DNA of 64,000 nt from Candidatus Cloacimonadota bacterium. GTDB taxonomy: Bacteria > Cloacimonadota > Cloacimonadia > JGIOTU-2. Positions within the stretch are counted from its first letter, which is position 1. Every line of letters begins with the position of its first letter. Shown one piece after another: positions 5,489 to 25,454 of this stretch. The DNA lies in NCBI GenBank assembly GCA_049903315.1, contig JBNGBT010000003.1:170466-234465 (forward strand), written 5' to 3'. A program made the translations under genes and the position numbers. The notes under the pieces were generated by a model. The model had not been told where the DNA came from. It saw nothing but the letters and a program-made list of their open reading frames with translations, and ran no database searches.

Positions 5489-5489
<1 letters not shown>

Positions 5490-6808: not shown

Positions 6809-8770
6809 TTATTCTTTAATGTTAGTCTGCTTTTTTTTTATTAATGCAAGGGTTCCACCTGCAAGCAGAATTTCTTTTTGTCGATCAGACAGATCATACG
6901 TTGTTTCAAACTCTGTTCCTTTTGATACGTTCTTAACAATTATGTTCTTACCTTCTCGTAATGTTTCTTTTATATTTGGAATTTCAAGTTCATCCGCTTG
7001 TTCTATTTCATTGTAATCATCTTCATTTTTGAAATTTAACGGAAGTATGCCAAAATTGATGAGGTTTGCATTGTGAATTCTTTCCATAGACTTTGCAATA
7101 ACAGCTTTCACTCCCATATACATCGGGCAAAGTGCGGCATGTTCACGGCTGCTTCCCTGACCATATGAAAGTCCTGCAACAATAATATTATCTTTTCCGT
7201 TTTCTTTGATTTCTTGTGCGCGATCATGAAATGTAGGATCAACTACTTCAAACAAAAATTCAGAATATTTTGGGATGTTTGATCGATACTTCATTTTCGA
7301 CCCGGCAGGTATTATGTGATCTGTTGTGATCAGGTCTCCTACTTTCAAAGTTACAACACCGGATATTTTATCTTTAAGTGGTTCTGCTGCTGGAGGATCG
7401 CCAATATTTGGGCCACGATAAATCCCCATCTCTCCCTTAATTGATTCAGGGAAAATGAACATGGAGTCATCAATATAAAATTTGTCCGGCATTTTAATTC
7501 TAGGATATTCAATTTCTATTTTCTCAAGATCTCTCGGGTCTGTAAATTTGCCTGTAATTACAGCGGCTGCTGCAGTTTCAGGACTCACCAGATATACATC
7601 TGCAGATTTTGTTCCTGATCTTCCAAAGAAGTTTCTGTTACTTGTTCTAAGTGATACTGCGCCTGTTTTAGGAGATTGACTGTTACCAATACAGAAACCA
7701 CACGCAGATTCTGCGATTCTTGCGCCTGCCGAAACAATGCTTTCAAAACCACCATCATGTATGATATTTTCAATTACCTGTTTTGAACCGGGTGCTACTA
7801 CAAAGCTTGTATCTTTACTTAGTTTTTGATCCTTTAAGATATTTGCTACAGTCATCATATCTTTGTAAGAAGAATTAGTACAACTTCCTATACAGACTTG
7901 ATCAACATTAATCTCACCGATATCTTTTACAGTGCTGATATTTCCGGGACTATGTGGAGTTGCTGCCATTGGAACAAGCTCGGAAAGATCTATATCAACA
8001 ACTTTATCATATTCTGCATCATCATCAGCGACTAGTTCCAGCCAGTCATCTTCACGGTCTTGGGCTTTTAAGAATTCTTTTGTGACTTCATCACTCGGGA
8101 AAATTGATGTTGTTACTCCGCATTCAGCCCCCATGTTTGTGATCGTCGCTCTTTCGGGAACGGATAGTGTGCTTACTCCAGGTCCACCATATTCAAATAT
8201 ACAACCCACATTTCCTTTAGTTGTAAATATTTCAAGAACTTTTAGTATTATATCTTTTGCTGCAATCCAAGGATTTAGTTTTCCCATTAAATTTATTTTT
8301 ATAATCTTTGGATAAGTTATATAGAATGGACCGCCAGCCATTGCCACTGCCACATCAAGACCTCCGGCACCGATTGCCATCATTCCGATCCCACCTCCGG
8401 TCGGAGTATGCGAATCTGAACCAAGAAGAGTTTTGCCAGGTTTGCCAAATCTTTCAAGCTGAACCTGGTGGCAGATTCCGTTCCCAGCCCTGGAATAAAC
8501 GATTCCATATTTTGCTGCAACAGATTGAAGGTATTTATGATCATCTGCATTTTCAAAACCGATTTGAACAGTGTTATGATCAACATAACTTACAGAAAGA
8601 TCGGTTTTCACTTTTGGAACACCCATCGCTTCAAATTGCAAATAAGCCATAGTACCGGTAGCATCTTGTGTAAGTGTTTGATCGATCCTGATACCTATTT
8701 CAGTACCTTTTTCTGGCTTTCCTTCGATAATGTGATTTGATAAGATTTTTTCTACTATGTTTTTTCCCAT
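6809..8770 (-). CDS. acn: Aconitate hydratase (~650 aa type)
   Basis: TQDATGTMA, GICHQV, GSDSHT, IGSCTN, ACGFCIG, TSNRNF, TTDHI, GSSREHAA; three Fe-S cysteines present. Confidence 0.92.
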   Translation of the reverse strand: MGKNIVEKILSNHIIEGKPEKGTEIGIRIDQTLTQDATGTMAYLQFEAMGVPKVKTDLSVSYVDHNTVQIGFENADDHKYLQSVAAKYGIVYSRAGNGICHQVQLERFGKPGKTLLGSDSHTPTGGGIGMMAIGAGGLDVAVAMAGGPFYITYPKIIKINLMGKLNPWIAAKDIILKVLEIFTTKGNVGCIFEYGGPGVSTLSVPERATITNMGAECGVTTSIFPSDEVTKEFLKAQDREDDWLELVADDDAEYDKVVDIDLSELVPMAATPHSPGNISTVKDIGEINVDQVCIGSCTNSSYKDMMTVANILKDQKLSKDTSFVVAPGSKQVIENIIHDGGFESIVSAGARIAESACGFCIGNSQSPKTGAVSLRTSNRNFFGRSGTKSADVYLVSPETAAAAVITGKFTDPRDLEKIEIEYPRIKMPDKFYIDDSMFIFPESIKGEMGIYRGPNIGDPPAAEPLKDKISGVVTLKVGDLITTDHIIPAGSKMKYRSNIPKYSEFLFEVVDPTFHDRAQEIKENGKDNIIVAGLSYGQGSSREHAALCPMYMGVKAVIAKSMERIHNANLINFGILPLNFKNEDDYNEIEQADELEIPNIKETLREGKNIIVKNVSKGTEFETTYDLSDRQKEILLAGGTLALIKKKQTNIKE

Positions 8771-9045: not shown

Positions 9046-9717
9046 TTATTGTTTTTTATTAATTTTTACAACATTTCGTAAAATATACACAAATATAAAA
9101 ATTCCGATTGCATTCCCGAGCACCATCGGCAGTATGATCTCTTTCACAAGCGCAATAGAATTTGCATAAGGTTTTGAGAGGAGCAGTATGAGGATCATAT
9201 GGAAAAGCTCAAGGCATACAACAACTGTTATTGCCATCCAGTAGGACAGGGATTTTTTAAAGGATTTAGAAACAAACCCCGCGATAACTCCTGCGAGAAG
9301 AGTTGCAAGAGAGCAGGGAAGTTGAGTAAAACCCCCTAAAAGAAAACGGTGCAATCCAGCCAGGAATCCTGTGATAATGCCAATGATAGGTCCACCGATA
9401 AAGCCCGCAATAAAGGGAGCTGTATCGCGGATATTCGATATTGCTCCAACAACCGGAATCCCTAGAGTCGTGCCATAGATGCCAATAATTACAAAGAGGA
9501 TTATTGTTCTTGCCGAATCCCAGGCAGTTGCTTTTTCTAAAAATACATTTTTAAAGGTTTCACTTTTACTGAAGAGGAAGAATATAAACATTACAAGCAG
9601 ACTTTCCTGTAGTAGACTATACACAGATTTCAGGATCGCTACGCTTTTTACTGGCGCAGCATTGAGCGTCGTCGCGCACATAATGAGCAAGAATAAAACA
9701 AAGATTAGTTTTCTCAT
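9046..9717 (-). CDS. Stand-alone LytS/YhcK-type 5TM receptor (5TM-5TMR_LYT) membrane protein
   Basis: GAISNIRD, GFIGGPIIG, AGLHRFLLGGFT, ELFHMILILLLSKPY and IILPMVLGN match the LytS membrane domain. The ORF ends with no cytoplasmic output domain. Confidence 0.8.
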   Translation of the reverse strand: MRKLIFVLFLLIMCATTLNAAPVKSVAILKSVYSLLQESLLVMFIFFLFSKSETFKNVFLEKATAWDSARTIILFVIIGIYGTTLGIPVVGAISNIRDTAPFIAGFIGGPIIGIITGFLAGLHRFLLGGFTQLPCSLATLLAGVIAGFVSKSFKKSLSYWMAITVVVCLELFHMILILLLSKPYANSIALVKEIILPMVLGNAIGIFIFVYILRNVVKINKKQ

Positions 9718-9728
9718 TTCGGACCTTT

Positions 9729-10937
9729 CTATTTGCTGTTTATTGAATGATTTTCTTCATAGAATGTTAGATTTGATGTCCACTCATAAGACCCATCCAT
9801 TTCTTCTATTTTCCAGAAATCGTAGTTGCCGAATTTTCTATCTCCGGCTTTGTTCAGCGCAGTCCAGCCGGTGCATCCATAATATGAATTTGCAGTGTGT
9901 ATAAAGGCATTTGCGAGTTCTTTAGGCTTACCTTCTTTTGCTACAATATTGGATAATGCAGCCAGCCAGCATGCATCATAAGCTGCTAACACATAGGATG
10001 AGGGTGTTTCATTATATTTGTTTGTGATTTGCAGATCAATAAAATGCGCTTTCTCAGTCTTATCAGGACTATACATCGGGCAGAGAAAATCTACAGCGAT
10101 AGTTGCCTGAACTGCGATTGGGTTTTTTACAATCAAATCGTTTATGGCTGTTCCATCGCTTCCAAACCATCGCACACTCATAAGATTTGGATAATATGAA
10201 AGTGCTGTAAAAACAGGAACTGCTTCATCAAAAGCAAGGAAATATATACATAGTTCATTTGGCGAGTATGTTTTTAATGAATTTTTGACCAGATCGTCCA
10301 GCCGGCTTAAGTATTTATCAAAATTTACAGAAAGAGGATCAAAAGCAATACCTTCCACAAACTGAATCGGAGAAGTGCCGAGATATTCATCCATTGCATT
10401 AATGAGTCCCCTACCCCATGCATCATCCCGCCAAAATGGGAGCACTGCCTTATACTCCATGTTCTTCATATATGTTGCTATTGCAATTGCCTGGTGATTA
10501 TCATCAGGAATCAAGCGGAAGATAAAATCATTTTCAACTGCAAGGTCTGGAGCTGTGCTCTCTGTACTGATGACGATCATATCGTTCTCGTCCACAAAGG
10601 GTTTGATGGCGGAGAGTTCCGAACTTGCCTGAACACCGATTATTGTTTTTATCCCTTTTGAATGCATCAACTTTGCCTTGCGCAATGCAACTATTGGATC
10701 TGTTTGAGTATCTTGAAATTCAATATGAAAGGAATAGGATTTTCCTATGCAAGTTAGATAAGAGTTGATGTCCTTTTCGGCAATTTCGCATCCTACCTGT
10801 GCCGATTTTCCGAAGGAAGCAAGGTCTCCCGAGAGTGACAGAAACGCTGCGATAGTAATATCTTTTTCAGTAGAACATCCTGCAATAATAAGCAGGACTA
10901 AAATAAAGCTTAACGCAAAAAAAGTAATTTTTTTCAT
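9729..10937 (-). CDS. Periplasmic-binding-protein type 1 lipoprotein (branched-chain amino acid/ANF-receptor-like SBP)
   Basis: Lipobox IIAGC; LSLSGDLASFG, STAPDL, FIFRLIPDD, AYDA, GWTALNKAGDR. Confidence 0.8.
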   Translation of the reverse strand: MKKITFFALSFILVLLIIAGCSTEKDITIAAFLSLSGDLASFGKSAQVGCEIAEKDINSYLTCIGKSYSFHIEFQDTQTDPIVALRKAKLMHSKGIKTIIGVQASSELSAIKPFVDENDMIVISTESTAPDLAVENDFIFRLIPDDNHQAIAIATYMKNMEYKAVLPFWRDDAWGRGLINAMDEYLGTSPIQFVEGIAFDPLSVNFDKYLSRLDDLVKNSLKTYSPNELCIYFLAFDEAVPVFTALSYYPNLMSVRWFGSDGTAINDLIVKNPIAVQATIAVDFLCPMYSPDKTEKAHFIDLQITNKYNETPSSYVLAAYDACWLAALSNIVAKEGKPKELANAFIHTANSYYGCTGWTALNKAGDRKFGNYDFWKIEEMDGSYEWTSNLTFYEENHSINSK

Positions 10938-10959
10938 ATTAGTCCTTTCAATGATTTGA

Positions 10960-11292
10960 TTATTTTAGTTCCTCAATCGCCTCATCGATTGTATTAAAGA
11001 TCGGAAAATCAGAATGGAAGTCAACAAGTTCAAGTATATGAAGAATATCATCATTCACTCTGCAGAGCGCGATTACACCATTGCTGTTCAGTTCGCGAAG
11101 AGCATAGTAAAAGGCACGGATACCCGAACTGCTTATATACTCAAGTTTTGAGCAATCAACAAGGATAGTATACTCTCCGTTAAGTATGTGTTTTATCAGA
11201 GTGTCTTGAAAATCCTTTGATGTGAATGAATCGATTTTTCCGTCAACACTGATGATGCGTATATTCTTTTCCTTATTTGTCGTGATATGCAT
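10960..11292 (-). CDS. STAS-domain anti-sigma factor antagonist (RsbV/SpoIIAA-like)
   Basis: VDCSKLEYISSSGIR phospho-Ser motif; 110 aa from ATG 11292, with GGAG upstream. Confidence 0.88.
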   Translation of the reverse strand: MHITTNKEKNIRIISVDGKIDSFTSKDFQDTLIKHILNGEYTILVDCSKLEYISSSGIRAFYYALRELNSNGVIALCRVNDDILHILELVDFHSDFPIFNTIDEAIEELK

Positions 11293-11296
11293 AAAA

Positions 11297-13369
11297 TTAC
11301 TCCTCTCTATTATTGGCGAAATACTGGATAGCAAGCATTGTGATATCATCGGACTGTGGTGTCCCTTCGGCAAATTTATGAACCTCTTTTATTATCATTT
11401 TTAGAATTTCATTGGGTGCTGCATGAGATTGTGTTCGTAAAGTTTTTTCTAATTTATTTTCCCCAAACAGTTCATCCTTTGTATTTGCTGCTTCGGTAAT
11501 GCCGTCTGTGTACAGGAATATACTTTGATGGTCTGACAATGTCAGGTTTTCTGAAGTATATTCAACCTTTCTCCTTAGTCCAAGTGGTGTTTTATGAGGA
11601 AGTTCAATCAATTCTATTTGATCTTCTTTGAGCAAATATGGAAGATTGTGTCCTGCACTCGTGAGTGAAATATGGCCATTTTTCACGTTAAGAATCCCAA
11701 GTAGAAGCGTGACAAACATGCAATGCTCATTATCCCTGTAGAGTTCTGTGTTCACTTCAGATATTATTTCAGAAGGAGACGGGATGCCGGATTGTTCCCT
11801 TTTGAGCAACATGCTGGTGGCACGTATCAGACTTTTACTTCGAGCCATGAAAAGAGCTGCAGGCACTCCTTTGTCTGATACATCTCCTATCAAAAAGCAT
11901 AAGTGATCATCGTCGATAAAGAAGAAATCATAGAGATCACCACCAACTTCTTTTGCAGGTTCGAGTAGTGCGTAAATATCAATCTCATTTCTGTCCGGAA
12001 AAGCGGGAAAGGCCTGAGGTAGCATGCTCATCTGAATTTCATGAGCTATGCGGAGTTCGCTTCGGATTTTCTCGTTAGCCGCAGTGGTGAGTTTGAGATC
12101 GGTAATATATTGCTGCAGAGTTCTTTCCATGTTGATAAAAGTTCCTGCAAGATGTCCCATTTCATCATGGGAGCTTCTCGTGAGATGAGTTAACTCGGCG
12201 GAATCAGTTATACCAAAATTGTTTTCCGTAAGTTGCCGTGCGTGTGCAGTAAGGGTTTTCACCGGTTTTGTGAAACGGTGAACTATAAAGAAAGTAACCA
12301 TACTTGCTATAAGTAAAGCGGCTAATGTAATAAGGAGTTCTCTGTGAAAGATACGTCGCGAAGGCTCCTTCATTTCATCGATATAGAATGCAGATGCGAT
12401 ATACCAATAAAGTGGTTCAAAATAATCTACATATGCGATTTTTTTGAATTTTTCAGTTCCTTCGTACCCGGGTTTATTCCACAAATATATGTAGGGTTTA
12501 TCCGGATTTTTTGATGCTTTAACAAGATGTTCCCAGTGGTCAATTCCCATTCCTGGCTCATCCACATCTGCAAAATCAACCCCTTCCATTGTAGGATGGA
12601 CAAGAACGATATGGTTCTTATTAAAAATGAAAAAATAACCATTCTCACCGATACGGATCTTTGAAAAGGTTTTTCGAAATTCGCTCAGAATTTCTTCAAG
12701 TTTGTTTTCAATATCCCTGTCAATATCATCGATATAAACTCCCGTTCCGACTATCCAATTCCATGGCTTGAAATAGGAATTGTAGGATAGTTTTTCAACT
12801 GGTTTTGTTTCATCGAGACGGATATACCAAAAAGACTCAAAACAACTCCCTGTTTTATACACATTATCCTTGATCATCTTAAGCGGATAGTTACCTTTCA
12901 TATCCTGGTATTCTGTCATATTAGTGCCTTTAATATTTGGATCGGGATGTGAAATTGCGACAAGATCTGTATTATAAATGTAAAAATAATCATTATTCCC
13001 ATAGCGGAAATTTTCAACACTTCCCAAAGCAAATGCCTTTGCATCCTGCTCAGAAAGTATCCCCTTTTTATAAAGATTGTGGTAATATTCTATGTCTGAA
13101 ATAACAAGCCCGGTGACGTTCTTGAGTTGCTCTTTGTATCGGTTTAAGGCATACTCTTTATGAAAAAGCAAGCTGCGATATTCATTTTCAACATACAATT
13201 TGATGAGCTTCCGCATATCATGAACTGAACCAGTAATAGTATTCCACATGATTTTCTCGACTTCATACTGAGTGAGAAGCATAAATGCAACTGTTGTGCA
13301 AACAAGTATGACAAGAATGAGAAGGAGCATCTTTGTGGTAAAAGAAAGGGAGTGCAATGATATTTTCAT
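11297..13369 (-). CDS. Membrane PP2C/SpoIIE-type phosphatase with tandem Cache sensor domains and HAMP
   Basis: TM, two Cache-like repeats (FRYGNNDYFYI...WIVGTGVYIDD; IGENGYFFI), TM, HAMP (DEMGHLA), and PP2C motifs EVGGDLYD, GDVSDKG, YTDGITEA, DDITM. Confidence 0.9.
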   Translation of the reverse strand: MKISLHSLSFTTKMLLLILVILVCTTVAFMLLTQYEVEKIMWNTITGSVHDMRKLIKLYVENEYRSLLFHKEYALNRYKEQLKNVTGLVISDIEYYHNLYKKGILSEQDAKAFALGSVENFRYGNNDYFYIYNTDLVAISHPDPNIKGTNMTEYQDMKGNYPLKMIKDNVYKTGSCFESFWYIRLDETKPVEKLSYNSYFKPWNWIVGTGVYIDDIDRDIENKLEEILSEFRKTFSKIRIGENGYFFIFNKNHIVLVHPTMEGVDFADVDEPGMGIDHWEHLVKASKNPDKPYIYLWNKPGYEGTEKFKKIAYVDYFEPLYWYIASAFYIDEMKEPSRRIFHRELLITLAALLIASMVTFFIVHRFTKPVKTLTAHARQLTENNFGITDSAELTHLTRSSHDEMGHLAGTFINMERTLQQYITDLKLTTAANEKIRSELRIAHEIQMSMLPQAFPAFPDRNEIDIYALLEPAKEVGGDLYDFFFIDDDHLCFLIGDVSDKGVPAALFMARSKSLIRATSMLLKREQSGIPSPSEIISEVNTELYRDNEHCMFVTLLLGILNVKNGHISLTSAGHNLPYLLKEDQIELIELPHKTPLGLRRKVEYTSENLTLSDHQSIFLYTDGITEAANTKDELFGENKLEKTLRTQSHAAPNEILKMIIKEVHKFAEGTPQSDDITMLAIQYFANNREE

Positions 13370-13690: not shown

Positions 13691-15196
13691 TCACTTTATG
13701 AGCACGCACTTTCCTGTATCAGTCGCTACGTTATTAACCTTCAAATTATAGAAATAAATTCCACTCGGAACTTGTTGATCAGCATCATTTTTTCCGTCCC
13801 AGATCATTGAATGTGAACCTGTATCAAAATATGAGGGTAGCATGCTTCTAATCTTTTGCCCTTTGAGATTGAAAATATCTATCAGCACCTGTGCTTGTGT
13901 TGCAAGAGAGAAGGAAATCATCGTGGAGTTAGTGAAAGGATTGGGAACGTTCCCAATAAGATCACAGACAGCTTCTTCAATTTGCGGGTCTTGCGCAACA
14001 CCGATATATATAGGATCAAAATCAACAATCCCGTATGATGGATTATCATTCCCATCGATAATAGTTTCTGCAATCTCGGTATAATTGTCACTATCCCACG
14101 AATTATTTTCTGCTTTCATATCTAAAGGGGATCCATTATACACACTAAAAGTTGTTCCCGTTCCATCAATATTGTCGTGTATATTATTCTCACCATCGTC
14201 ATTCGTACTCAAGTTGCCAAGATCTCCAAGATTAGAAGTTGCATTATTGATGCAGTAGAAGCCACAAAAATTGAAAGCAACTTCATTTTGTACGAAAGTG
14301 CCATTCGTGCCTGATCCATAGAGCATGACCCCCGCACCCGAGTTCGGGTCACCGGCAATAAAATTATTACAAATCTCATTATTCTTATAATAGCCTTGTC
14401 CATTATAGAGATATATTCCCGTGAGATTGAATTCTATGATATTATTTTCGACGTGAGGTGCTACTTCACCATAATTATAAAGATTTGCAAGTGTGATGCC
14501 TTGCTTGTCATTATGGTGAATGTGGTTGTTGGTAATCGTTGGATTGCATTCGCCAGTTGAAGTCTGTATGGCGAGTTGAATTGCAGGCCAATAGGAAGTT
14601 CCCTGCCCGCACGCTTTTATGTCACAGTTATCTACAAGAGCATTTGAATTTTCTGTGATGAGGATTCCGCACTGCTCACACGTGGTTATGAAGGAATGAG
14701 AGATTTCCATATAAGAGGGATTTTCATCACTCATTGCAGAAAAATGTATTGCTTTTCTGTGATTATCGAAGAAACAGTTTTGAATGATAACTTGAGCATT
14801 TACCGAGTGAATTCCATACCCGTTTGTGCCGGCAGTATTTGAAATTCTGCAATAACTAAATGTGCTCTGATTGAGCTCATCCTCAAGACGAATGCCTTCC
14901 CAGGTTGTCGTACCTTGTCCATAAAATTTGATTGAATCAGTTTCGGTTCCCTGTACTGTTATAAATCCTTCAGCAGTAATTCTAAAATTTCCCTGTACTT
15001 CGACAAGTACGCCCGGTTCTATAATGAGAGAGTTTCCGGCAGGAATAGTTATTGCACCAATGACGTAATATGGACTACCTGCCAATGTCCAGGTTCCGGA
15101 TTGATTGCCTGATACATTTGTATTACACATGCCGGTACATGGGATGAGTAAAATTGCTAAGATGCTTATAATAATAATCAGTATTTTTTGTTTCAT
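13691..15196 (-). CDS. Secreted right-handed beta-helix protein with C-terminal FlgD-Ig/T9SS-type domain
   Basis: Signal peptide from MKQKIL (AGGAG RBS); WTLAGSPY, Asn-rich PbH1-like repeats; C-terminal NVPNPFT...WDGKN...SGIYFY. Confidence 0.8.
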   Translation of the reverse strand: MKQKILIIIISILAILLIPCTGMCNTNVSGNQSGTWTLAGSPYYVIGAITIPAGNSLIIEPGVLVEVQGNFRITAEGFITVQGTETDSIKFYGQGTTTWEGIRLEDELNQSTFSYCRISNTAGTNGYGIHSVNAQVIIQNCFFDNHRKAIHFSAMSDENPSYMEISHSFITTCEQCGILITENSNALVDNCDIKACGQGTSYWPAIQLAIQTSTGECNPTITNNHIHHNDKQGITLANLYNYGEVAPHVENNIIEFNLTGIYLYNGQGYYKNNEICNNFIAGDPNSGAGVMLYGSGTNGTFVQNEVAFNFCGFYCINNATSNLGDLGNLSTNDDGENNIHDNIDGTGTTFSVYNGSPLDMKAENNSWDSDNYTEIAETIIDGNDNPSYGIVDFDPIYIGVAQDPQIEEAVCDLIGNVPNPFTNSTMISFSLATQAQVLIDIFNLKGQKIRSMLPSYFDTGSHSMIWDGKNDADQQVPSGIYFYNLKVNNVATDTGKCVLIK

Positions 15197-15355
15197 ATTG
15201 CTCCTGCCTGTATAGTTGTTTGCGAGGTTTGTAATTCTCTTAAAAAAATATGTCAAGGTAAAACTTATATCAGAAAATAACTCCAATTCGAGATTGTATT
15301 GGCTTGGAAATTATCGCGATACGAAGAATGAAATCAAAAAAGCTGAGAGGATATA

Positions 15356-17989
15356 TTACGTATCTTCCTCTTTTGGGATCGGCAAATTCTCAGTTTCACA
15401 AATCTCTTTTAGTCTGGAAAACGACCATTCAGCCTGATAATTGAAGAAATAGCCATATGGTTTTTGGAGTATATCAATCAAATCCCGGGTATTAGTATCA
15501 GTATTTTTCTGGCTGTATGATTTAATTTTTTTTAAATCCTTGTCGGAAAGTTTCAGCGTGATAAAAGTCAAAACATTACCCAGTTTTAGTTTGATATGTC
15601 CTAAACCGTCTTCGAGGATTTTTTTTCGAGCCCTGTTCACCTCTCTTTCGCCCACCTTATTTAAGACATTTGTATATTTTTCAAAAAGAATGTATTCATT
15701 CAGCATCTCTAAAATCAAATCATCGGAGAACGCGTTCCAGAATGCAACAGAGTGCTGCTGGCAGAGGAATCTGCCCAGCATGAATGAACCTGCCGTGTAA
15801 CCCTGTAAATTTTTCTTTCTGCAAACTGGAATGATCAACTTGAAAAGTGTGACCTTTCTATCCAAAGATAGAAGTTGATAGAGTTTGTGTTGATCTTGAT
15901 GGCTTCCTAGTTCGCTTTGTAAGAGTTCCTCAATGTAAAAATCTGTATTGGAATCAAACCAGGAGTTCATGAGTTTTTTTGCTTTTTGGGGATCTTTCTG
16001 CAGGTTGTTTCTTACCAATTTTATCAATTCATCAAGTTTTACAATATGATCTACCTGCATATTTTCTATGAGTTGATCGTACACCTTGAATGCTTTCGCC
16101 ATATTCTCGAATACTGTTCTTTCCTTCTTCTCCATTTCCAGTTTTTCGCCGTTCAAATATCTTTGGAATCGAGCCGGCTTATAATCTGCTTGTCCACAAA
16201 AAATGGTCTGTCTTTTACTGGAAATCGTAATTTGATCTCCCTCTGAGATTGTCATACCGTTTTCATTTACAAGATGATTTCCTTTTAGGGTAACACCAAA
16301 TTTTTCCAGATTTAGAAAAGCGGGAACTCCATAACTCCGGCAGGCAGTGACGACATGGATTGCAGCAGGGGTCAGGCTTACTATTGCATCAACCTCTGCC
16401 ATAACCAGAGTGTCAGACGGAACGAAGCTTTCTCTGCATATGCAGACTTTTTCTCCTCGCTTTTTTGCTTCCATGGCAGCGGCTGCTGAAAAATATGCTT
16501 TTGCAGAAACTGCTGTTCTGGGCAAAATTGATACACCTTTGCAGAAAAATTTCAATGTTTTGAATGATCTGTCATCGATTCTGTCTGAAAATATTTGTGT
16601 AAGATGATAGGGCTTGATCAACTCTATTACACGCTCGGCATCAATGACCTTTTTTTGGTAGAGATCAATTGCAGAAAGAAGAGTCGCTCTTCCAGTCAAC
16701 TCGGAAGTGTTTAGCTGTAATACTGCAAAAAGATATGCATCATCATAAGATTCCGCAGCAAATTCTACTGTCACCGGGGACTTTAATTTTTTCTCCAATT
16801 CCCGGAGTAGTGGCTCAAAATGATACACTGCCGGATACATATTTTTAATAGATTCGCGATTAAAAAACTCATGATCATTCGTTTCGATGAGTCCGGTCAT
16901 GATCTCTTCACCAAAAATATTCGGTAGACTCTCTACTTGAATACCTAAACCAGTTCGGGCGTGACGGCTGTATAAAACGCCAGGATAAGATTCGTCTCCC
17001 CGTACAGTCCATACCATTTTTTGCAAAATAATTGATGGGAATTTCTCACCTTTTCTTACAAATGTATGAAGTAAATCCTGATTTTTCTCAAAGTATTCAT
17101 AAGCCCTTCGCAAGAAAAAACAGACCTGATAAAAGGCATCATGTAAAAGCCGTTCGTCTTGAACAGAAATGCGCTTGTAGTGATAGTCGATCTCCTCATC
17201 GATACGATCCACTTCGATATTTTGCTCTGTCTCATATCCTCCAAAGAGGTTCAGTTCGAGGGTTCGCAGATTACTCAGATATATTTTTTTTGCAACAGTT
17301 TTTCCTAAAATTTTACTGAGAACCGGAAAATTTTTGCTGGTCACACCCACATTTAAAAAGGTGGGCATCAAGCCGGGGATATACGAGGGCATCGCAGAGC
17401 GCATTGCAATGATAAGAGGTTTGTCTTCCGAACCAAACTTCTGGGCAGACATCTGCTCCAGATTTTTTATAGCTTTATAAATATTTGCCTTTCTTTCTTC
17501 CTGTGATAGAAAGTAATTGTTGGAAGTAAGTATGCAAAAATCCGGTACAGGATAACCCTCTTGAATAATATCCAGTAACTTAGTGCCCTTATGACTTATC
17601 AAATCTACATCAAACATATTTTGCGTGCAAGAAGGCACTATTGATTCATTTTCCACAAAATTTAAATTTTGAAATTCTCTTTGTCTCTCTGCGATAAAAT
17701 CATGAATTTGGTTTGTTAACCTTTTGGCAGCTTCCACATCCTGACGCGAGGAAAGAATATTTTCAAGAATATCATGTCTTGCAGGAGCTGGATTCATGCA
17801 AAGATACACGCTTTCGCAATCAGTCAGGACGAGTGAGCCCGATTCGCCTCCCATAAGTTGATAATCCATTTCCACTGGCAAATAACCAGGGAGATAGCAT
17901 TTATCCTTATCAATATCTCCATTTAAGAATTGTTGTACCACATTGAAATTAAGATAATTTCCTCTAAATTTGAATGCCTTTAACACCAT
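15356..17989 (-). CDS. PPDK-like protein: nucleotide-binding domain plus phospho-His domain, with unknown N- and C-terminal domains
   Basis: HKGTKL..GYPVPDF, AMRSAMPSYIPGLMPTFLNVG, LQKMV..GVLYSRHARTG, FGEEIMTG and PAAIHVVTACR align by eye to PPDK. No PEP-binding barrel motifs follow. Confidence 0.75.
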   Translation of the reverse strand: MVLKAFKFRGNYLNFNVVQQFLNGDIDKDKCYLPGYLPVEMDYQLMGGESGSLVLTDCESVYLCMNPAPARHDILENILSSRQDVEAAKRLTNQIHDFIAERQREFQNLNFVENESIVPSCTQNMFDVDLISHKGTKLLDIIQEGYPVPDFCILTSNNYFLSQEERKANIYKAIKNLEQMSAQKFGSEDKPLIIAMRSAMPSYIPGLMPTFLNVGVTSKNFPVLSKILGKTVAKKIYLSNLRTLELNLFGGYETEQNIEVDRIDEEIDYHYKRISVQDERLLHDAFYQVCFFLRRAYEYFEKNQDLLHTFVRKGEKFPSIILQKMVWTVRGDESYPGVLYSRHARTGLGIQVESLPNIFGEEIMTGLIETNDHEFFNRESIKNMYPAVYHFEPLLRELEKKLKSPVTVEFAAESYDDAYLFAVLQLNTSELTGRATLLSAIDLYQKKVIDAERVIELIKPYHLTQIFSDRIDDRSFKTLKFFCKGVSILPRTAVSAKAYFSAAAAMEAKKRGEKVCICRESFVPSDTLVMAEVDAIVSLTPAAIHVVTACRSYGVPAFLNLEKFGVTLKGNHLVNENGMTISEGDQITISSKRQTIFCGQADYKPARFQRYLNGEKLEMEKKERTVFENMAKAFKVYDQLIENMQVDHIVKLDELIKLVRNNLQKDPQKAKKLMNSWFDSNTDFYIEELLQSELGSHQDQHKLYQLLSLDRKVTLFKLIIPVCRKKNLQGYTAGSFMLGRFLCQQHSVAFWNAFSDDLILEMLNEYILFEKYTNVLNKVGEREVNRARKKILEDGLGHIKLKLGNVLTFITLKLSDKDLKKIKSYSQKNTDTNTRDLIDILQKPYGYFFNYQAEWSFSRLKEICETENLPIPKEEDT

Positions 17990-18131
17990 ACTCCTCTTTG
18001 AACTATTACACTAAATATTGTGCAAGATTATCATCTATAAAATTTATTTCATGCAAAGACCGGTGTTGGATGGATGAACGGATTAATGAAATTTCATCAG
18101 TATATTGAGGGTAGGTCTTGTTCACGATTTA

Positions 18132-20777
18132 TTAGAAAATGATCGTATATGATGTTCCATTTTTCTGATTTAATTTTAATGTTCCATTCAGCTGGGAAAT
18201 AAGATCCTGAATAAGCTGGAGCCCGAGTGAAGATTGACCGGCATTCTTAAGATCTTCAGTAAATCCTACTCCATCATCTCTAATTATGAGCTTATTTTTT
18301 CCTGCCTTGGTTTTTTTCATAGAGATGTACACTGTTCCTGTTTTGTCATCTGGAAATGCGTGTTTGAAAATATTGGTAAGTATTTCATTGCAGAGGAGTC
18401 CGCACGGAACCGCCTGGTTGAGATCGAGAGTAATAGGCTCTGCATCAATCTCAAAATTGATCTTGCTTTGCGGCATTCCCGTTGAACTAAACAGCGTATT
18501 GAATAATTCTTTTATATAATCTGCGAAATTGATATCGATGAAATTCTCCGACTCATACAGCTTTTCATGTATGATTGCCATTGAACGTATCCTGTTCTCC
18601 ACAATTTTAAACTTATCCACTATTGCTTCATCTTCGATATAAAGTGATTGTAAATGCAAGAGGCTGATGATGATCTGCATATTGTTTTTTACACGGTGAT
18701 GGATCTCTTGCAGCATAACAACTTTTTCTTTCAAAGAATTTTCGACTTCGCGTTGGGAATTTTTTATGTCCGAAATATCCGCAAAAACCCCAAATGAGCC
18801 TACGTATTCATCATTTTCAAAAAGCGGTGTCGCATTGATAAGCAAGGATTTTATTTCCTCATTATAGGTCTGGCATCGAATTTCGAATCTGTCCTGTTTG
18901 CCCTCCTTTCTTCTCTGGGTCTGAAACAGGAGTTGCTCCAAATCCTCTTTCAATATGACATTTTTTAGATTTGTACCTTTAAGGTCTTCGAAAGGTATGT
19001 CAAAAATAACTCCTGCTGCTTGATTTGCAAAAACGATATTCTCATCTTCATCCACAAGCATAATACCTTCTTGCATTGTCTCGATGAGGTTTCTGTATTT
19101 TTCTTCGCTTTTCTGGAGCGCATTGAATATCTCTTTCTGTTCAGTACTATCTCGCTTGATCGCAACATAAAAGATGACGTTCCTGTCATGGTCCATAATT
19201 GGGAATGCTGAAATATCTATATAGAGATCTCGTCCGGCAGAGGTTTTCATATACGTCTCTGCACGGTAGAATTCATATTCGAGAAGCGCATCTCTCATTT
19301 CATTAAAATTTTCTTCACCCATATATACTGCAGGAGTTTCATCTTTAAGAGCTTCATTTGAATAGCCGAACAATTTTCTGTGAGAGGGGTTCTGTTCATA
19401 GAACGTAAAATCGGGTTTGATTATTTCGATGCTGTCAGTCGAGTAGTAAAAAACTTCTTTGAATAGTTGCAGGTTTTCTTCTGCTTTTGTTCTTTCATCG
19501 ATGAGTTTATTGGCAGATTCTGCGATCGCCTGAAATTCGGAAAAATGTACAGTGTCGGGCTGTATTTGTACATTTTCATTTTCTGCTTTTTGAAAGAATG
19601 CTACAAATGTTTTGAAATTATTCTTTAATTTTGCGGAGATATAAATAGAGGTATTTGCGATAATGACAACGATAAGAGCGAGAAGACCTATCACTTTTAG
19701 TATATGATTATTAATGCGTTCCCTTAATACGGTTTTTTCTTGAGCGATCAAGAATTCAATATCATCAAGATATACTCCTGCACCGATGATCCATTTCCAT
19801 TCCGGCAAACCTTCAATGTATGAAATTTTAGGATGAGATTCATTGTCGTCGATTTTATTCCAACTATACTCTATAAAACCACTTCCCTGTTCCTCAACAA
19901 TTTTCCGTTCATCCTGGATAATTTTCATACCCTCACTATCGGTCAGGTTCCAGATATTCTCAGTTCCAAGTGTGATCGTGCCATTTGAAAAAAGAGGATC
20001 ACCGTCGTAGGTAACTCCAAATATGTACCCATTTTCGCCAAACCGGACATTTGCCAGGCGTTCTATTGTAGAATATTTCAATTCTTCAATATAGCTTTCA
20101 TAATAATCACCAAGTGCGATTATCCAGTCATAAGGTTCAAAATATTTGACGTATGTCAGTTTAAGATAAGGTTTTTTTGAAGGATCATTTGGGATTGGAC
20201 GATAATACTCTATAAATCCTTCTCCCTGACTTTTTGCTTTTTTAATGTATTCGCGAACAAAATAAAAACCATTCACATCCCTTTGCTCCAATCGGTTATT
20301 GCCCTCTTCGGATTCAATAGGATTGTTGTTTTTATCAGATTGAAGGAGAAGTGCAGTTCCATCACCAGCTGTCACCGAATAATATCCTCGACCATAATTT
20401 TGTTTAAGAGGACGCAATACCGAGAGTATAAGTTTTTTAAGCTCCTGCTCCGGCATGGAATATCTGTTTTCATAATAGAGGTGTTCTACGATATCATAAC
20501 CCTGATAAAGCTGGGATCGTACCCGATTTCTTAAATCTTCACTGGCTTTATTGATACTTAACGTAATAAATTCAATTGAGTTTTGGACCTCATATTTTAT
20601 AATTTGTTTGTTCTTTTCAATAAATTGTTCGCGGATATCATGTGTTGATTGATTGAACTGTATGTATTCCTGGGAAATAAGGAAATATCCAAGCATTGCT
20701 ATAGAAATGGTCGTAACCAGCAGCATGCTTATAATAAATAGTCTGGATACACTTCGAGCTTTTTTCTTCATATTCAA
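18132..20777 (-). CDS. Membrane sensor histidine kinase (2x Cache, 2x PAS, HisKA_2/HATPase)
   Basis: Two TMs flanking Cache repeats; PAS domains; H-box EIHHRVKNNMQ, N-box NEILTNIFKHAF, DDGVG, SLGLQLI. Confidence 0.92.
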   Translation of the reverse strand: MNMKKKARSVSRLFIISMLLVTTISIAMLGYFLISQEYIQFNQSTHDIREQFIEKNKQIIKYEVQNSIEFITLSINKASEDLRNRVRSQLYQGYDIVEHLYYENRYSMPEQELKKLILSVLRPLKQNYGRGYYSVTAGDGTALLLQSDKNNNPIESEEGNNRLEQRDVNGFYFVREYIKKAKSQGEGFIEYYRPIPNDPSKKPYLKLTYVKYFEPYDWIIALGDYYESYIEELKYSTIERLANVRFGENGYIFGVTYDGDPLFSNGTITLGTENIWNLTDSEGMKIIQDERKIVEEQGSGFIEYSWNKIDDNESHPKISYIEGLPEWKWIIGAGVYLDDIEFLIAQEKTVLRERINNHILKVIGLLALIVVIIANTSIYISAKLKNNFKTFVAFFQKAENENVQIQPDTVHFSEFQAIAESANKLIDERTKAEENLQLFKEVFYYSTDSIEIIKPDFTFYEQNPSHRKLFGYSNEALKDETPAVYMGEENFNEMRDALLEYEFYRAETYMKTSAGRDLYIDISAFPIMDHDRNVIFYVAIKRDSTEQKEIFNALQKSEEKYRNLIETMQEGIMLVDEDENIVFANQAAGVIFDIPFEDLKGTNLKNVILKEDLEQLLFQTQRRKEGKQDRFEIRCQTYNEEIKSLLINATPLFENDEYVGSFGVFADISDIKNSQREVENSLKEKVVMLQEIHHRVKNNMQIIISLLHLQSLYIEDEAIVDKFKIVENRIRSMAIIHEKLYESENFIDINFADYIKELFNTLFSSTGMPQSKINFEIDAEPITLDLNQAVPCGLLCNEILTNIFKHAFPDDKTGTVYISMKKTKAGKNKLIIRDDGVGFTEDLKNAGQSSLGLQLIQDLISQLNGTLKLNQKNGTSYTIIF

Positions 20778-20783
20778 TATATT

Positions 20784-22499
20784 TTAGTGTTCAAAATGAA
20801 TAGTGAGAACAATCTTGTTTTTCTCTTTTTTGGAAGAGGTAGCATCAGCATCTTTTTTGATAAGGTAGCCGGCAAGTTCAGTAGCAGCGCTATCCTCTGT
20901 CATCAAACTTTCTTTTGAAGGTTTCCTTTCTGGGAAGACTAAAATCTTGCCCTGATATTCTATAGTAATGTCCAGGTTAAACTCATCAAAACTCACCTGC
21001 ATACTAATTTCCTTTGAGGTTAATCCAAGATTTGGTGTACTCTCCATAAACTCATTCATTACGGTTATTGCTTTATAAATGATACTTGGACGCGCACCCC
21101 ATGAACCCCCAGCTTTTTGCATAAATTTATAAATCTTGTCAGATGATTCCTGTCCAGCGGCAAGCATGAGTGTTAATTTCTTCTTTACGCCAATTCTCAT
21201 GAGGAGATTGAGCACAACTGCGGTCACAGCTCCTAAAGATAAAGAGGATTGAAAAATAGGTTTGAGCCATGAATGAATGTTTACATAAGCAATAGGGATC
21301 ATGTCAGCGCTGAGCCCGAAAATGAGAGCGATACCAACCACAAAGATCTTTCGGGAATCAAGCATTCTACTCATGATTATTTGAAAACCTGAGATTATCA
21401 TGAAGCTTATTGCATAGATAAGTGTTGCACCCATAACGGGTTTGGGCATTATGATAAATATGTTCGCAAGTTTTGGAAAGAATCCGAGAAATATAAGAAT
21501 GCCGCCTGCGCTGTATGCAATTGTTCTACTCGTTGCTCCGGTAGCAATGGAAAGTCCGACGTTCGTCGAAGAAGTGGACTGGCCAAAACCTCCGAATATT
21601 CCCGGAATAATACCTCCCAGACCATCAGCAAGAATTCCTTTTGAGATGGATTTCATTTCAGGACGTTTCCAATTTGCATCATTAATTTTCTGACACGTGG
21701 TAAGATCACCTACTGTTTTCAGTGCCGAGCAAAGTGCTGCAATGACAAATGGTACGAGTAACCTGGCGTCAAAAGCCCATGATAGACTTTTAAGATAGGG
21801 GGCATCAATAATCCTGGAATGCATTATTTTGTGAAAATCTGCTTCTGTGAACAAGCCGAATATATAGGCAAGTATATAACCTGAAATCATTCCTATCAGA
21901 CAGCTATAAAGGCGAAGTTTTCCTTTGCCGAAAACATTCAATCCTATCATTAAAAGGAGGACAGAAATTCCTACAATCAATTCCGAAGATGTGATAATAG
22001 TATCTGTATCACTCAATCCGACAAAGCTTTTTATCGAAATGGGAATGATCGTGATACCGACCATTGCCACGATAGTTCCTGTTACTTCGGATGGGAACAG
22101 AACTCTGAGCTTGTGCATGAATCTTGAAAAGATGGATTCTGCGACTCCAACAAAAGCAGTCATCCCAAACAGAACAGGTAAACCGCCACCCGATATTGCC
22201 ATGAACGATGCCTGCAGATAGGAAGGACCGCACACAGATGGACACAGATAGCCTGAGCCAACAGGTCCTTTTTTTAGCGCTTGGAGAATTGTCACAATAC
22301 CACTGGAGATCATTGTGATGCTTATAAAACCACTGGCTGTGCGCGGATCGATATTTGTTCCAAAATAATTTACAATCATCACAGGGAATATCATCGCGAT
22401 GAAAATAACAAAAACGTGCTGCAATCCGAGAAAGAATGTGACCGAAAGTGGCGGTTTGTCATTCACGCCATAAATTAGGTTGGCTGGTTTTTGTATCAT
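20784..22499 (-). CDS. NCS2 (xanthine/uracil permease) family protein with a ~135 aa cytoplasmic C-terminal extension
   Basis: LIYGVNDKPP, GLQH, LFPSEVTG, GILADG, NVGLSIATG, MPKPVMGA; hydrophilic tail after about aa 437. Confidence 0.85.
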   Translation of the reverse strand: MIQKPANLIYGVNDKPPLSVTFFLGLQHVFVIFIAMIFPVMIVNYFGTNIDPRTASGFISITMISSGIVTILQALKKGPVGSGYLCPSVCGPSYLQASFMAISGGGLPVLFGMTAFVGVAESIFSRFMHKLRVLFPSEVTGTIVAMVGITIIPISIKSFVGLSDTDTIITSSELIVGISVLLLMIGLNVFGKGKLRLYSCLIGMISGYILAYIFGLFTEADFHKIMHSRIIDAPYLKSLSWAFDARLLVPFVIAALCSALKTVGDLTTCQKINDANWKRPEMKSISKGILADGLGGIIPGIFGGFGQSTSSTNVGLSIATGATSRTIAYSAGGILIFLGFFPKLANIFIIMPKPVMGATLIYAISFMIISGFQIIMSRMLDSRKIFVVGIALIFGLSADMIPIAYVNIHSWLKPIFQSSLSLGAVTAVVLNLLMRIGVKKKLTLMLAAGQESSDKIYKFMQKAGGSWGARPSIIYKAITVMNEFMESTPNLGLTSKEISMQVSFDEFNLDITIEYQGKILVFPERKPSKESLMTEDSAATELAGYLIKKDADATSSKKEKNKIVLTIHFEH

Positions 22500-22517
22500 A
22501 TTTTTATTTTTCCTCGA

Positions 22518-25454
22518 TCATTTGATCAGGTCTGCTTCGCATTTGACACAGTTTTTTCCAAGTTTCTTGCCCATATAAAGAGCCTGATCTGCCTGGTTTA
22601 TAGTTTCGTCAATAGTTTTGTTTTCTTGATAAATGCTTAAACCCATTGTTATTGAAACATGAATATTCTTCCCAAGGAAATCAAATTCCTTGGATTTCAC
22701 TTTCACTCGAATCTTTTCTGCAAGGATGAGTCCTCCATCAATGTCTGTTTGTGGAAGAAGAAGGAGAAACTCTTCTCCACCCCACCTTGAAACTGTGTCC
22801 TGTTTTCTCACATTCATGCACATAATATTTGCAAGAGTTTTCAATACTTCATCCCCGGTATCATGCCCGAACCGGTCATTAATGGATTTGAAATCGTCAA
22901 TATCACAAATTATGATTGCAAAAGGTTTTTCGCTTCTTCCAAAGCGGCGTTTTTCATATTTTATCTTTTCCATGATATCCCGGCGATTTGAAAGCTGGGT
23001 AAGAGGGTCGGTTCTTGCGAGAAGTTCGAGTTTCTTATTTGCATCCTTTAATTTGTCTTCTGCAAGTTTTCTTTCTGCGATTCTGCCCAGTTGATCTGAG
23101 ACTGCATGAAGCAGATGTGATTCTTCTTTTGAAAAAGGTCCGATGAAATCTTCTGGACGCGATTCAAGGTATCCTACCTCTATTGAACCGAGCACTTTAT
23201 TGTATGAAACAATATCCTCGCTGATATGCCAATCGGTTGATTTATAATTTTCTGAAGTAAATATTTCATTATTCCAGGTTATTTTGACATAGGTGATTTC
23301 AGGATATATCCATGCTTGTGCAATGATCTCAAGACTATTTTTGAGAACCATTTCCATTGAAATTTCAGGATCTTCAACAATATCCGAAATTTTATAGAGG
23401 CAGTTCAGTTCTTTTACTCGTTCGTTGAGTTCTTGAGTTCTCTGTCGAAGTGCATCTTCAGCAAATTTCCTGCTGGTTATATCTCTTGCAACTGCCTGAA
23501 ATCCTATTATATTTCCACCTTCTAATAACAATGAGGTATTTTGTCCCAACCATGAATCTTTGCCCGTAAGTGTTACGATCTCGAATTCATGATATGTATT
23601 CATGGTTTTATCAAAGAATTGATGCTGATAAAAATGTTTTAACTTTGCCCGATTCTTTTTTGTTACAATGTCAAGGCTGCTCCTTCCAACAATCTTATCT
23701 GCAGGCATGCCAAAGAATTTTTCTCCAACTGCATTTACATATGTAATATTTCCTTTTACATCCATACGATATATGATATCATTGGCATTCTCGACGAGTT
23801 CTCTATAACGTTCTTCACTCTTTCTAAGAGCTTCCTCAGCAATTTTTCTGTCTGAGATATTTCTATAAATACCATAAACCGCAAGCTGCCCGCCCTCAAA
23901 AATAATCGGTGTACCAAGAATCGACACATCTACTGGAGTGCCGTTCTTGTGCCAGCGAACTGTGTCAAAAGCAACTGTTTCACCATGTGCGATTTTATCG
24001 GTTACGTCTTTTGCTTCATCTCTGTATTCGCCGCGTGTAAGAAGCGTGTCGATTTTTTTGTATCTTGCTTCATCGATAGTATAGCCGAAAGTCCGCGTGA
24101 ATTGCGCGTTCATCCTGAGAATACGGCTTTCGTTATCAATGAGCACGATTGCTTCCGGGGCGTTTTCAAAAAGCTGTTCAAAATATGCGCGCTCGATCCG
24201 TTGGGCATCCTCTGCCCGTTTGTGTGAAATGGCTATTGCAAGCTGTTCAGAAACGAATTCCAAAATTTCAAGATCATCCTTTGTATACAGGTTTTCATCT
24301 TCATAACTTTGAACAGCTACGACACCAATAACTTGTTTCTCTATCCTTAAAGGAACCCCAAGCCATATTTTTGATGGAGATCCCACACTCTCGATCAAGC
24401 CCTTTTTTGTCATTTTTATATTGAGTTTCTCATCAACGAGAAGTGGTTTATTATGTTTGATCACATAGCCAGTGAGAGTTTTTCCAGCCGGGAAAGAGGT
24501 GAATTTATCTTCTTCGTCAATAATGTAGGGAAGAGAGATGGTGTCACTTGCTTTATCATATAGTGCGACATAGAAATTTGTTGTATCAATTATTTCGCCC
24601 AAATGTTTCTGTATAGATTGAAAAAGCTCTTGGATACTCTCTGTAGCATTCACTGCATTTGAGATGTTATAAAGTGCATTCTGAATGCGTTGTGCCTTAT
24701 CTATTATTGTGATGTCCCTGAATGCAAGTACCAATCCCGCTGTCTCTCCGGTCGTTTTAACAGTTGGGGAGATGCTTCCTTCAATTATTTTTTCCGATTC
24801 ATTTCTGGTGATAAGAGTAGAAGAAGGTATTTTTGTTAATTTTTTGATATGTGAAGGATTATCTATGAGTTTGCATGTTTCTTTAGTTGTGTCGATACAT
24901 GTTATTCGAAAAACTGAATTCAGGGGCTGCCCTTTCACCTCTTCAGACCATCCGGTAATCACTTTTGCTATATCGTTGATATACAGGATATTCCCTTTTT
25001 TGTCAGTTGTGATAATGCCGTCACTAATACTCTGGAGCGTGGTTTGAAGAAGCCGTTCATTCTCCCGGATTTTCTGTTCAAGAGCGTACCGTTCAAGTGC
25101 TATTTCGATGCCAGCTAAAAGTTCTTTTTTCTGAAAGGGTTTTATTATATATCCATATGGAGCAGTTTCTTTTGCGCGCTTGAGGGTTTCGTTATCAGAG
25201 TAGGATGTTGCAAAGATTATCGGCACTTTTATTTCATCTAAAATTTTAGCTGCTGTTTGAATGCCGTTAATATCGCCCCCCAGAACAATGTCCATCAAAA
25301 TCACGTCAGGTTTTTTTTCGGTAGCTTCAATGAGTGCTTTTTCTCCCGAAGTGCATATGCCCACGACATTATAATCTAATCCTCTCAACATAGCTTCAGT
25401 ATTTTTAGCGACAATTATCTCATCTTCCACTATGAGAACATTAGTTTTTGTCAT
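22518..25454 (-). CDS. Diguanylate cyclase (REC-PAS-GAF-PAS-PAS-GAF-like-GGDEF)
   Basis: REC (LIVEDE, DVILMDI, KPF), PAS and GAF domains, DPLTQLSNRR, DIDDFKSINDRFGHDTGD, I-site RKQD and active site GGEEF. Alternative GTG start at 25460. Confidence 0.93.
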   Translation of the reverse strand: MTKTNVLIVEDEIIVAKNTEAMLRGLDYNVVGICTSGEKALIEATEKKPDVILMDIVLGGDINGIQTAAKILDEIKVPIIFATSYSDNETLKRAKETAPYGYIIKPFQKKELLAGIEIALERYALEQKIRENERLLQTTLQSISDGIITTDKKGNILYINDIAKVITGWSEEVKGQPLNSVFRITCIDTTKETCKLIDNPSHIKKLTKIPSSTLITRNESEKIIEGSISPTVKTTGETAGLVLAFRDITIIDKAQRIQNALYNISNAVNATESIQELFQSIQKHLGEIIDTTNFYVALYDKASDTISLPYIIDEEDKFTSFPAGKTLTGYVIKHNKPLLVDEKLNIKMTKKGLIESVGSPSKIWLGVPLRIEKQVIGVVAVQSYEDENLYTKDDLEILEFVSEQLAIAISHKRAEDAQRIERAYFEQLFENAPEAIVLIDNESRILRMNAQFTRTFGYTIDEARYKKIDTLLTRGEYRDEAKDVTDKIAHGETVAFDTVRWHKNGTPVDVSILGTPIIFEGGQLAVYGIYRNISDRKIAEEALRKSEERYRELVENANDIIYRMDVKGNITYVNAVGEKFFGMPADKIVGRSSLDIVTKKNRAKLKHFYQHQFFDKTMNTYHEFEIVTLTGKDSWLGQNTSLLLEGGNIIGFQAVARDITSRKFAEDALRQRTQELNERVKELNCLYKISDIVEDPEISMEMVLKNSLEIIAQAWIYPEITYVKITWNNEIFTSENYKSTDWHISEDIVSYNKVLGSIEVGYLESRPEDFIGPFSKEESHLLHAVSDQLGRIAERKLAEDKLKDANKKLELLARTDPLTQLSNRRDIMEKIKYEKRRFGRSEKPFAIIICDIDDFKSINDRFGHDTGDEVLKTLANIMCMNVRKQDTVSRWGGEEFLLLLPQTDIDGGLILAEKIRVKVKSKEFDFLGKNIHVSITMGLSIYQENKTIDETINQADQALYMGKKLGKNCVKCEADLIK

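Follow-up and report, generated by a model that had tools for sequence, protein, structure and literature searches.

A PPDK-like protein family of Cloacimonadota and Bacteroidota with a predicted all-alpha domain where PPDK has its barrel

A 64,000-nucleotide stretch of contig JBNGBT010000003.1 (assembly GCA_049903315.1) from a Candidatus Cloacimonadota bacterium, here called the window, contains on its reverse strand a gene for a protein related to pyruvate phosphate dikinase (PPDK). It is a single open reading frame (ORF; 15356..17989) with an ATG start, which encodes 877 amino acids (aa) plus a stop codon. An 876-aa entry in the protein collection is 100% identical to this window protein and was found on 7 contigs. 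The protein consists of an N-terminal domain, an ATP-grasp nucleotide-binding domain of PPDK type, a swivel domain with a conserved His, and a C-terminal domain predicted to be all-alpha. We favor, with moderate confidence, the view that it is an active His-swivel phosphotransferase of the dikinase superfamily, which represents a distinct uncharacterised clade and carries a new acceptor domain. It probably phosphorylates something other than pyruvate. Full-text literature searches found no description of this PPDK-like family. A previous model-made interpretation of the same DNA, based on its letters and translated ORFs (the sequence-only reading), had proposed a PPDK-derived phosphotransferase in which the pyruvate barrel was replaced.

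A word-indexed search for homologs gave 977 matches at E<=0.001 among 7999 candidates scored. Nearly all of the 120 matches listed were 867-941 aa long and aligned at 99-100% coverage; among them, identity to the window protein was 58-94% in Cloacimonadota and 48-53% in Bacteroidota. Because full-length homologs at 48-94% identity run to hundreds, homology is far beyond chance. Most family matches carry the name "hypothetical protein"; in some sources, members are labeled "phosphoenolpyruvate synthase/pyruvate phosphate dikinase". An exhaustive search of representative sequences yielded 1937 matches, ~20 of which were full-length 50%-identity clusters. This search also detected a divergent set (24-31% identity) that aligned out to residues 743-784; ordinary PPDKs matched only residues 124-633 or less, with one extending to 678. 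A relative was encoded in 271 GTDB species genomes, and the gene occurs in metagenome-assembled genome records of Draconibacterium and Acetobacteroides. The best 80 of these loci belonged to Bacteroidota (57), Cloacimonadota (19), Fidelibacterota, Chlorobiota and Bacillota (1 each), and 1 was unassigned.

Similarity to PPDK (EC 2.7.9.1; TIGR01828; 1dik/1kbl) was confined to the central part of the protein, where the order of ATP-grasp domain, linker and swivel His domain is the same. Residues 129-606 aligned with residues 17-515 of Clostridium symbiosum PPDK (phmmer against PDB; 1dik, E=1.1e-23), at ~25-30% identity over 480 residues. Homology of the ATP-grasp domain to PPDK_N was evident in both sequence and structure comparisons (phmmer, E=1e-23; Foldseek, E=9e-32), and the swivel domain resembled 2fm4 (Foldseek, TM 0.83 normalised to target). 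Thus, when the protein was compared with the His-swivel phosphotransferase/dikinase superfamily as a whole, both a PPDK_N-homologous ATP-grasp domain and a mobile domain with a conserved His were found. In the phmmer alignment, K134, R197, E409, Q425 and H545 paired with K22, R92, E323, Q335 and H455 of 1dik. The ATP site of PPDK presumably comprises K22, R92, D321, E323, Q335 and R337, a list whose numbering fits the PDB mutant entries among the Foldseek matches. Conservation was assessed in two alignments: A1, which contained 30 of the 120 listed matches, every one at least 48% identical, and A2, whose 54 rows, with identities down to 24%, combined 29 A1 sequences with 16 additional representatives and 9 divergent sequences. 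K134, G135, R197, E409, Q425 and H545 were invariant in all 54 rows of A2.

The PPDK-type nucleotide-binding domain that keeps Lys, Arg, Glu and Gln and the retained swivel His had both been recognized by the sequence-only reading, as had LQLN in place of the PPDK motif LQTR and the absence of the Thr of TSH. All four points were confirmed by the pairing with 1dik, in which N427 lies at the position of R337, and A543 and I544 are at the positions of T453 and S454 (PAAIH versus GGMTSH). That reading did not mention two further changes, T407 in place of D321 and the loss of the K/R pair that follows R337. A group-wise alignment, in which 14 family members and 9 divergent relatives were set beside 8 canonical PPDKs and 10 PPDK-like proteins without the barrel, extended these differences to clade-wide signatures. 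Where PPDKs have GGKG, M(D/E)T, D-x-E, LQ(T/S)R and GGxTSH, the clade has S-x-KG, MPT, T/V-x-E, LQxN and (P)AAIH, respectively, the last being (T)PAAIH in the window protein. Judged from these alignments, the ATP-site replacements suggest an altered nucleotide or phosphate chemistry.

The C-terminal domain could not be linked to any known family. Residues 607-877 had no Pfam or PDB sequence match as a single sequence, and PEP-utilizers_C (PF02896), the barrel domain that binds phosphoenolpyruvate (PEP), was not matched in the window protein even at E<=1. A C-domain profile of 33 rows (A3; the window and 32 of 61 eligible loci, after 4 loci without anchor motifs and all family ORFs <860 aa had been dropped) gave no credible Pfam match and no PDB chain at E<=10. 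AlphaFold2, run on the whole protein with the 54-row alignment, gave a mean predicted local distance difference test (pLDDT) score of 87.4 and a predicted TM score (pTM) of 0.77. The model had a mixed N-terminal domain, a PPDK-like core and, from residue 607, ~15 helices and 0 strands. The C-domain modeled alone from A3 was again all-alpha (pLDDT 83.2, pTM 0.75). A domain without strands forms no TIM barrel; on these models, the third domain is not the PEP/pyruvate TIM barrel.

Structure searches were consistent with this assignment. With the whole model, Foldseek against PDB returned PPDK first (1kbl, E=9e-32), followed by rifampin phosphotransferase (RPH; 5hv2, E=4e-7), PEP synthase (2ols, E=6e-7) and HpeI (9goj, E=4e-5). 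With the C-domain alone, no PDB match was found at E<=0.001 (best E=0.29, TM 0.17-0.36); its weak neighbors were generic helical-repeat proteins, and no PPDK chain was present among the 50 matches listed. An ESM Atlas search with residues 605-877 gave a best feature score of 0.83, under the lead level of 0.9. The sequence-only reading, in which the ~270 C-terminal residues lack every barrel motif, is borne out by the missing PF02896 match, the all-alpha prediction and the lack of a PDB fold match; a PEP-binding TIM barrel, which would have contradicted it, did not appear.

The same results bear on whether the protein is a divergent but genuine PPDK or PEP synthase, as labels on some family members and the position of PPDK as best known relative would have it. 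We consider this hardly tenable and already contradicted. The TIGR01828 model matched only at positions 16-517 of 865 and scored 135.2 bits versus a cutoff of 843.45, the PF02896 barrel was missing, the third domain was all-alpha in two independent AlphaFold2 runs, and its profile found no PDB chain. As a PPDK equivalog, the protein thus falls short of the whole-protein cutoff, the barrel and the full set of ATP-site residues, and retains the swivel His. It differs from PPDK in having a 271-aa all-alpha domain at the place of the TIM barrel and an additional 125-aa domain at the N-terminus.

This N-terminal domain is also without a known family, as the sequence-only reading had stated. No Pfam or PDB sequence match was detected for residues 1-125, either with the single sequence or with a 26-row profile (A4; the window and 25 of the 61 eligible loci), whose best PDB sequence match, a designed protein at E=0.006, was judged not credible. 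AlphaFold2 predicted a mix of strands and long helices, and R9, Y12 and N14 (RGNYxN) were conserved.

Conservation was distributed unevenly among the domains, and the C-domain was about as conserved as the catalytic core in A1 (Table 1). Its motifs are ARFxxY, NxWFD, LGSH(697), AGSFMLGRF(740), LNEYxLFEKY(772) and VGER. In A2, G695, H697, G739 and Y772 were invariant in 54 of 54 rows; N675, W677, G734, F736, R740 and E765 were at least 90% conserved, with R740 and E765 exceeding 90%. With a hidden Markov model built from A3, the C-domain was detected in every full-length family cluster, and its first half in the divergent set. That the His, the four ATP-site residues and a polar, Gly-rich C-domain site are conserved throughout the 54 rows speaks for an active enzyme, with the new domain as the probable site of its second half-reaction.

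Table 1. Positions of the PPDK-like gene, its domains and key codons in the window, with conservation of the domains in alignment A1
Feature	Positions	Strand	Remark	Mean identity to window protein	Invariant columns
Whole ORF P0001, 877 aa	15356..17989	-	Full-length homologs at 48-94% identity		
N-terminal domain, residues 1-125	17615..17989	-	No family match; least conserved part	31.0%	2
PPDK-type ATP-grasp nucleotide-binding domain and first linker, residues 126-475	16565..17614	-		60.8%	72
Swivel (PEP-utilizers mobile) His domain, residues 476-606, H545 in PAAIHVVTAC	16172..16564	-		65.9%	29
H545 codon CAT, predicted phospho-carrier histidine	16355..16357	-			
C-terminal all-alpha domain (predicted), residues 607-877	15359..16171	-	AlphaFold2, alignments	53.5%	36
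H697 codon CAT, invariant His	15899..15901	-			
142-nt spacer up to histidine-kinase gene	17990..18131	-	Upstream of ORF		

In PPDK, PEP synthase and rifampin phosphotransferase, the swivel His is phosphorylated via a pyrophosphoryl-His intermediate. For the protein described here, we infer a related sequence of steps. The ATP-grasp domain would bind a nucleotide triphosphate and phosphorylate H545 on the mobile domain, which would then swivel to the all-alpha C-domain. In that domain, a polar site of conserved residues, putatively formed by N675/W677, G695-x-H697, G734-x-F-x-x-G739-R740, E765, K771/Y772 and E781, would bind the acceptor and catalyze the second transfer. The acceptor would not be pyruvate. 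Since this is a strongly conserved stand-alone gene in housekeeping-type surroundings, a metabolite or cellular protein of common occurrence appears a better candidate than a pathway-specific substrate. Complex prediction that paired residues 476-604 (His domain) with residues 612-877 (C-domain), each from A2 and run without controls, gave an ipSAE of 0.00 in both runs and is neutral on docking.

A bolder possibility, which we regard as quite improbable, is that the C-domain is a new catalytic fold that takes the phosphoryl group from H545 onto H697, making the protein a self-contained, ATP-driven His-to-His phosphorelay. H697 opens a predicted helix (697-706) directly within G695-x-H697, of which G695 is also invariant. 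HPr and the swivel domain itself likewise have their phosphorylated His at a helix N-terminus after a Gly. If true, such a relay would feed a new phosphoryl-transfer route in Bacteroidota and Cloacimonadota.

Several observations weigh against the proposed phosphotransferase. Both known domains are below the Pfam gathering cutoffs in the window protein (PPDK_N, PF01326, 22.3 versus 27 bits; PEP-utilizers, PF00391, 13.9 versus 23.1 bits), although several family members do reach the PPDK_N cutoff. Across the clade, D321 is replaced by T/V/S, R337 by N/D, and the K/R pair after R337 by non-basic residues, so that nucleotide chemistry may differ or be weakened. In addition, no neighboring gene was conserved across the 81 loci compared (80 loci and the window), which gives no pointer to the substrate. 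The loss of D321, R337 and T453 and the sub-threshold Pfam scores could also be expected if the PPDK line had left here an inactive relic, or a pseudoenzyme, that persists as a structure or scaffold. The sequence-only reading had named non-conservation of the His and ATP residues as the sign of such a relic; instead, none of the 54 rows, which come from more than one phylum, deviates at H545, K134, R197, E409 or Q425. Moreover, T407 and N427 are themselves conserved, which suggests altered rather than decayed chemistry. We therefore think it quite improbable that the protein is a relic, and retain the active phosphotransferase as the preferred interpretation.

To place the family relative to PPDK, a quick maximum-likelihood tree was computed from the nucleotide-binding and His region (41 rows, 483 columns, unrooted). 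The 14 family and 9 divergent rows were split from the rest by a branch with a support value (SH-aLRT) of 100 and a length of ~2.1 changes per site in total (halves of 1.17 and 0.94 at a midpoint root). On the opposite side were the 8 PPDKs, among which the 10 barrel-less forms were scattered. By sequence, the PPDK-like family is thus a distinct clade beside PPDK. Since the tree is unrooted, it supports a separate, old clade and not a direction of change. The sequence-only reading was right that the family has a PPDK-type chassis; its wording that the protein is "derived" from PPDK and its barrel "replaced" implies a direction that the tree does not give.

Among the barrel-less forms, P0222, P0232, P0235, P0236, P0255 and P0256 (754-899 aa) are PPDK-like proteins of the representative library without PF02896, whose C-termini were unmatched by the A3 profile, and which nest among canonical PPDKs in the tree. 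Together with the PPDK-like family, these six proteins suggest that the PEP-binding barrel is missing or replaced in several separate lines.

A barrel-less relative of PPDK has been characterized in Mycobacterium tuberculosis. VadK (Rv1127c) is described as autophosphorylating on its catalytic His and interacting with methylcitrate-cycle enzymes (PMC13400623). As described there, it resembles the window protein in having PPDK-type nucleotide-binding and His domains without the barrel; VadK is a truncated protein of ~50 kDa without a third domain, whereas the window protein has the conserved 271-aa C-domain and the N-terminal extension. The VadK/Rv1127c type itself (NF004531, a short PPDK-type model) was ruled out for the window protein by a score of 105.5 bits versus a cutoff of 456 and by the conserved C-domain. 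The short barrel-less forms sampled, which may or may not include VadK orthologs, nest among canonical PPDKs, apart from the PPDK-like family.

VadK nevertheless raises an alternative that we consider unlikely but worth weighing, namely a regulatory protein kinase or phospho-donor that autophosphorylates on H545 and targets partner proteins, with the helical C-domain serving docking or regulation. As VadK is reported, a PPDK-type core that has no barrel is able to act as a regulatory kinase and to autophosphorylate (PMC13400623). Protein contacts are frequently made by all-alpha domains, the weak Foldseek neighbors of the C-domain were helical repeat proteins, and no conserved metabolic neighbor was present among the 81 loci. 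The position of the family clade, apart from barrel-less forms that nest among PPDKs, and the low NF004531 score argue against a VadK-like protein. In addition, the invariant Gly-rich loops with His, Arg, Glu and Tyr would resemble a catalytic or ligand site more than a docking surface.

The enzymatic phosphotransferase that we prefer has precedents in rifampin phosphotransferase, PEP synthase, glucan water dikinase and HpeHI, which share the modular logic of an ATP-grasp domain, a mobile phospho-His domain and an exchangeable acceptor domain. The C-domain of the window protein is unrelated in sequence to the acceptor domains of these enzymes and had no PDB fold match. In rifampin phosphotransferase, the acceptor domain is described as lying between the ATP-grasp and the C-terminal His domain, and an Arg/Glu/Lys cluster of this domain as performing the second transfer (PMC4844700). 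The window protein does not have this architecture; its order is N-domain, ATP-grasp, His and C-domain. By analogy, R740, E765 and K771 could parallel the Arg/Glu/Lys cluster.

To our knowledge, the ATP-grasp and swivel-His chassis is a reusable phosphorylation machine, and every new acceptor domain so far has brought a new reaction. Reactions of the chassis include PEP synthesis, starch phosphorylation, rifampin inactivation, aromatic ketone activation and the regulatory kinase activity of VadK. The chassis and its modular reuse are therefore already known, and what is new here is the acceptor domain, the N-domain and the ATP-site signature. The Bacteroidota and Cloacimonadota that carry the family are anaerobes abundant in digesters and sediments. 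Once the acceptor is identified, the known metabolism of the Bacteroidales and Cloacimonadota, which are largely uncultured, would gain a further reaction or a regulatory phosphorylation, and the occasional "PEP synthase/PPDK" labels would be corrected.

Some family members had unusual forms. In the representative library, P0142 (1550 aa) contains the C-domain twice, at 526-746 and inside a full family unit at 809-1510, which may reflect either a tandem fusion or the merging of two genes. A search for split forms found 47 short matches, many of them located at the ends of contigs. Nine 90%-identity clusters of 376-377 aa (P0278-P0285 and P0287) begin at an internal Met equivalent to residue 503, in the His domain, and some of these forms sit on contigs of 9-77 kb; they may be a split gene, a broken gene or a miscalled start. 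P0312, an 807-aa divergent relative 44% identical to P0157, carries the source label of a Candidatus Hodarchaeota archaeon metagenome-assembled genome; either the wider superfamily may extend beyond bacteria or the bin is mixed.

Gene order around the family was compared by calling ORFs in the 80 loci and the window (830 ORFs) and clustering them by BLASTP. The PPDK-like family was present in 81 of 81 loci and the largest neighbor cluster in 9. Immediate neighbors were readable on each side in 72 loci. The most common was CTP synthase, on either side (9/81 loci), and others included sigma-70, radical SAM proteins, UPF0029 and SelA.

In the window, the genes upstream on the same strand encode a dCache-PAS-HisKA_2 histidine kinase (18132-20777), a xanthine/uracil-type permease (20784-22499) and a protein with response-regulator (RR), GAF, PAS and GGDEF domains (22518-25460). 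Downstream, at a distance of 69 nt, is a secreted-type protein with beta-helix and FlgD_ig domains (13691-15286), followed by a dCache-SpoIIE phosphatase and a STAS protein. Apart from the window, an upstream kinase of this type (cluster 14) was found in no more than 3 loci, all closely related and from Cloacimonadota; a different hybrid kinase was upstream in 2 Bacteroidales loci. The link with a signalling operon, at which the sequence-only reading had hinted, is therefore local synteny only, given that no neighbor is conserved across the 81 loci.

The spacer between the kinase and the PPDK-like gene was also screened. No Rfam match was found in 15200-18300 at E<=1, so a riboswitch clue is lacking; PADLOC detected no families, and no terminator-like site was seen on the reverse strand of the 142-nt spacer. 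Promoter and terminator scans showed no excess over shuffled sequences (30 versus 25.4; 6 versus 5.2). With no terminator-like site in the spacer and neither an Rfam element nor a PADLOC match, co-transcription with the kinase is possible in the source organism; the PPDK-like gene may share a transcript with it there, yet the association lacks conservation.

The PPDK-like gene lies between the two parts of a dense signalling region (9046-13369 and 18132-27658, both on the reverse strand). This region encodes the dCache-SpoIIE phosphatase with its STAS partner, an ANF-receptor-type binding protein, a 5TMR-LYT protein, the dCache-PAS-HisKA_2 kinase, the RR-GAF-PAS-GGDEF protein and two further Cache sensor proteins. 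Its synteny with the PPDK-like gene is confined to near relatives.

Dak2 and Dak1 genes (DhaL/DhaK-type dihydroxyacetone kinase) occur at 30998-32615 (-), 13 kb from the PPDK-like gene. Dak2 is an all-alpha nucleotide-binding domain, and no Dak2/DhaL chain was present in the listed Foldseek matches of the C-domain. The FlgD_ig beta-helix protein downstream of the PPDK-like gene (on the reverse strand) has a larger counterpart at 39815-43618 (+), which adds FG-GAP, dockerin and cohesin domains; in both, the FlgD_ig-like domain is terminal, and both are probably secreted surface proteins. Genes for a monomeric isocitrate dehydrogenase, aconitase and two ATP-citrate-lyase-type subunits (3642-5489 and 5489-6781) are located at 1378-8770 (-) and resemble a reductive tricarboxylic acid cycle set. 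Finally, PcrB-family (GGGP synthase-like), UbiA prenyltransferase and polyprenyl synthase genes stand in a row at 44445-46935 (-); this archaeal-type ether-lipid gene trio reportedly occurs in FCB-group bacteria, including Cloacimonadota.

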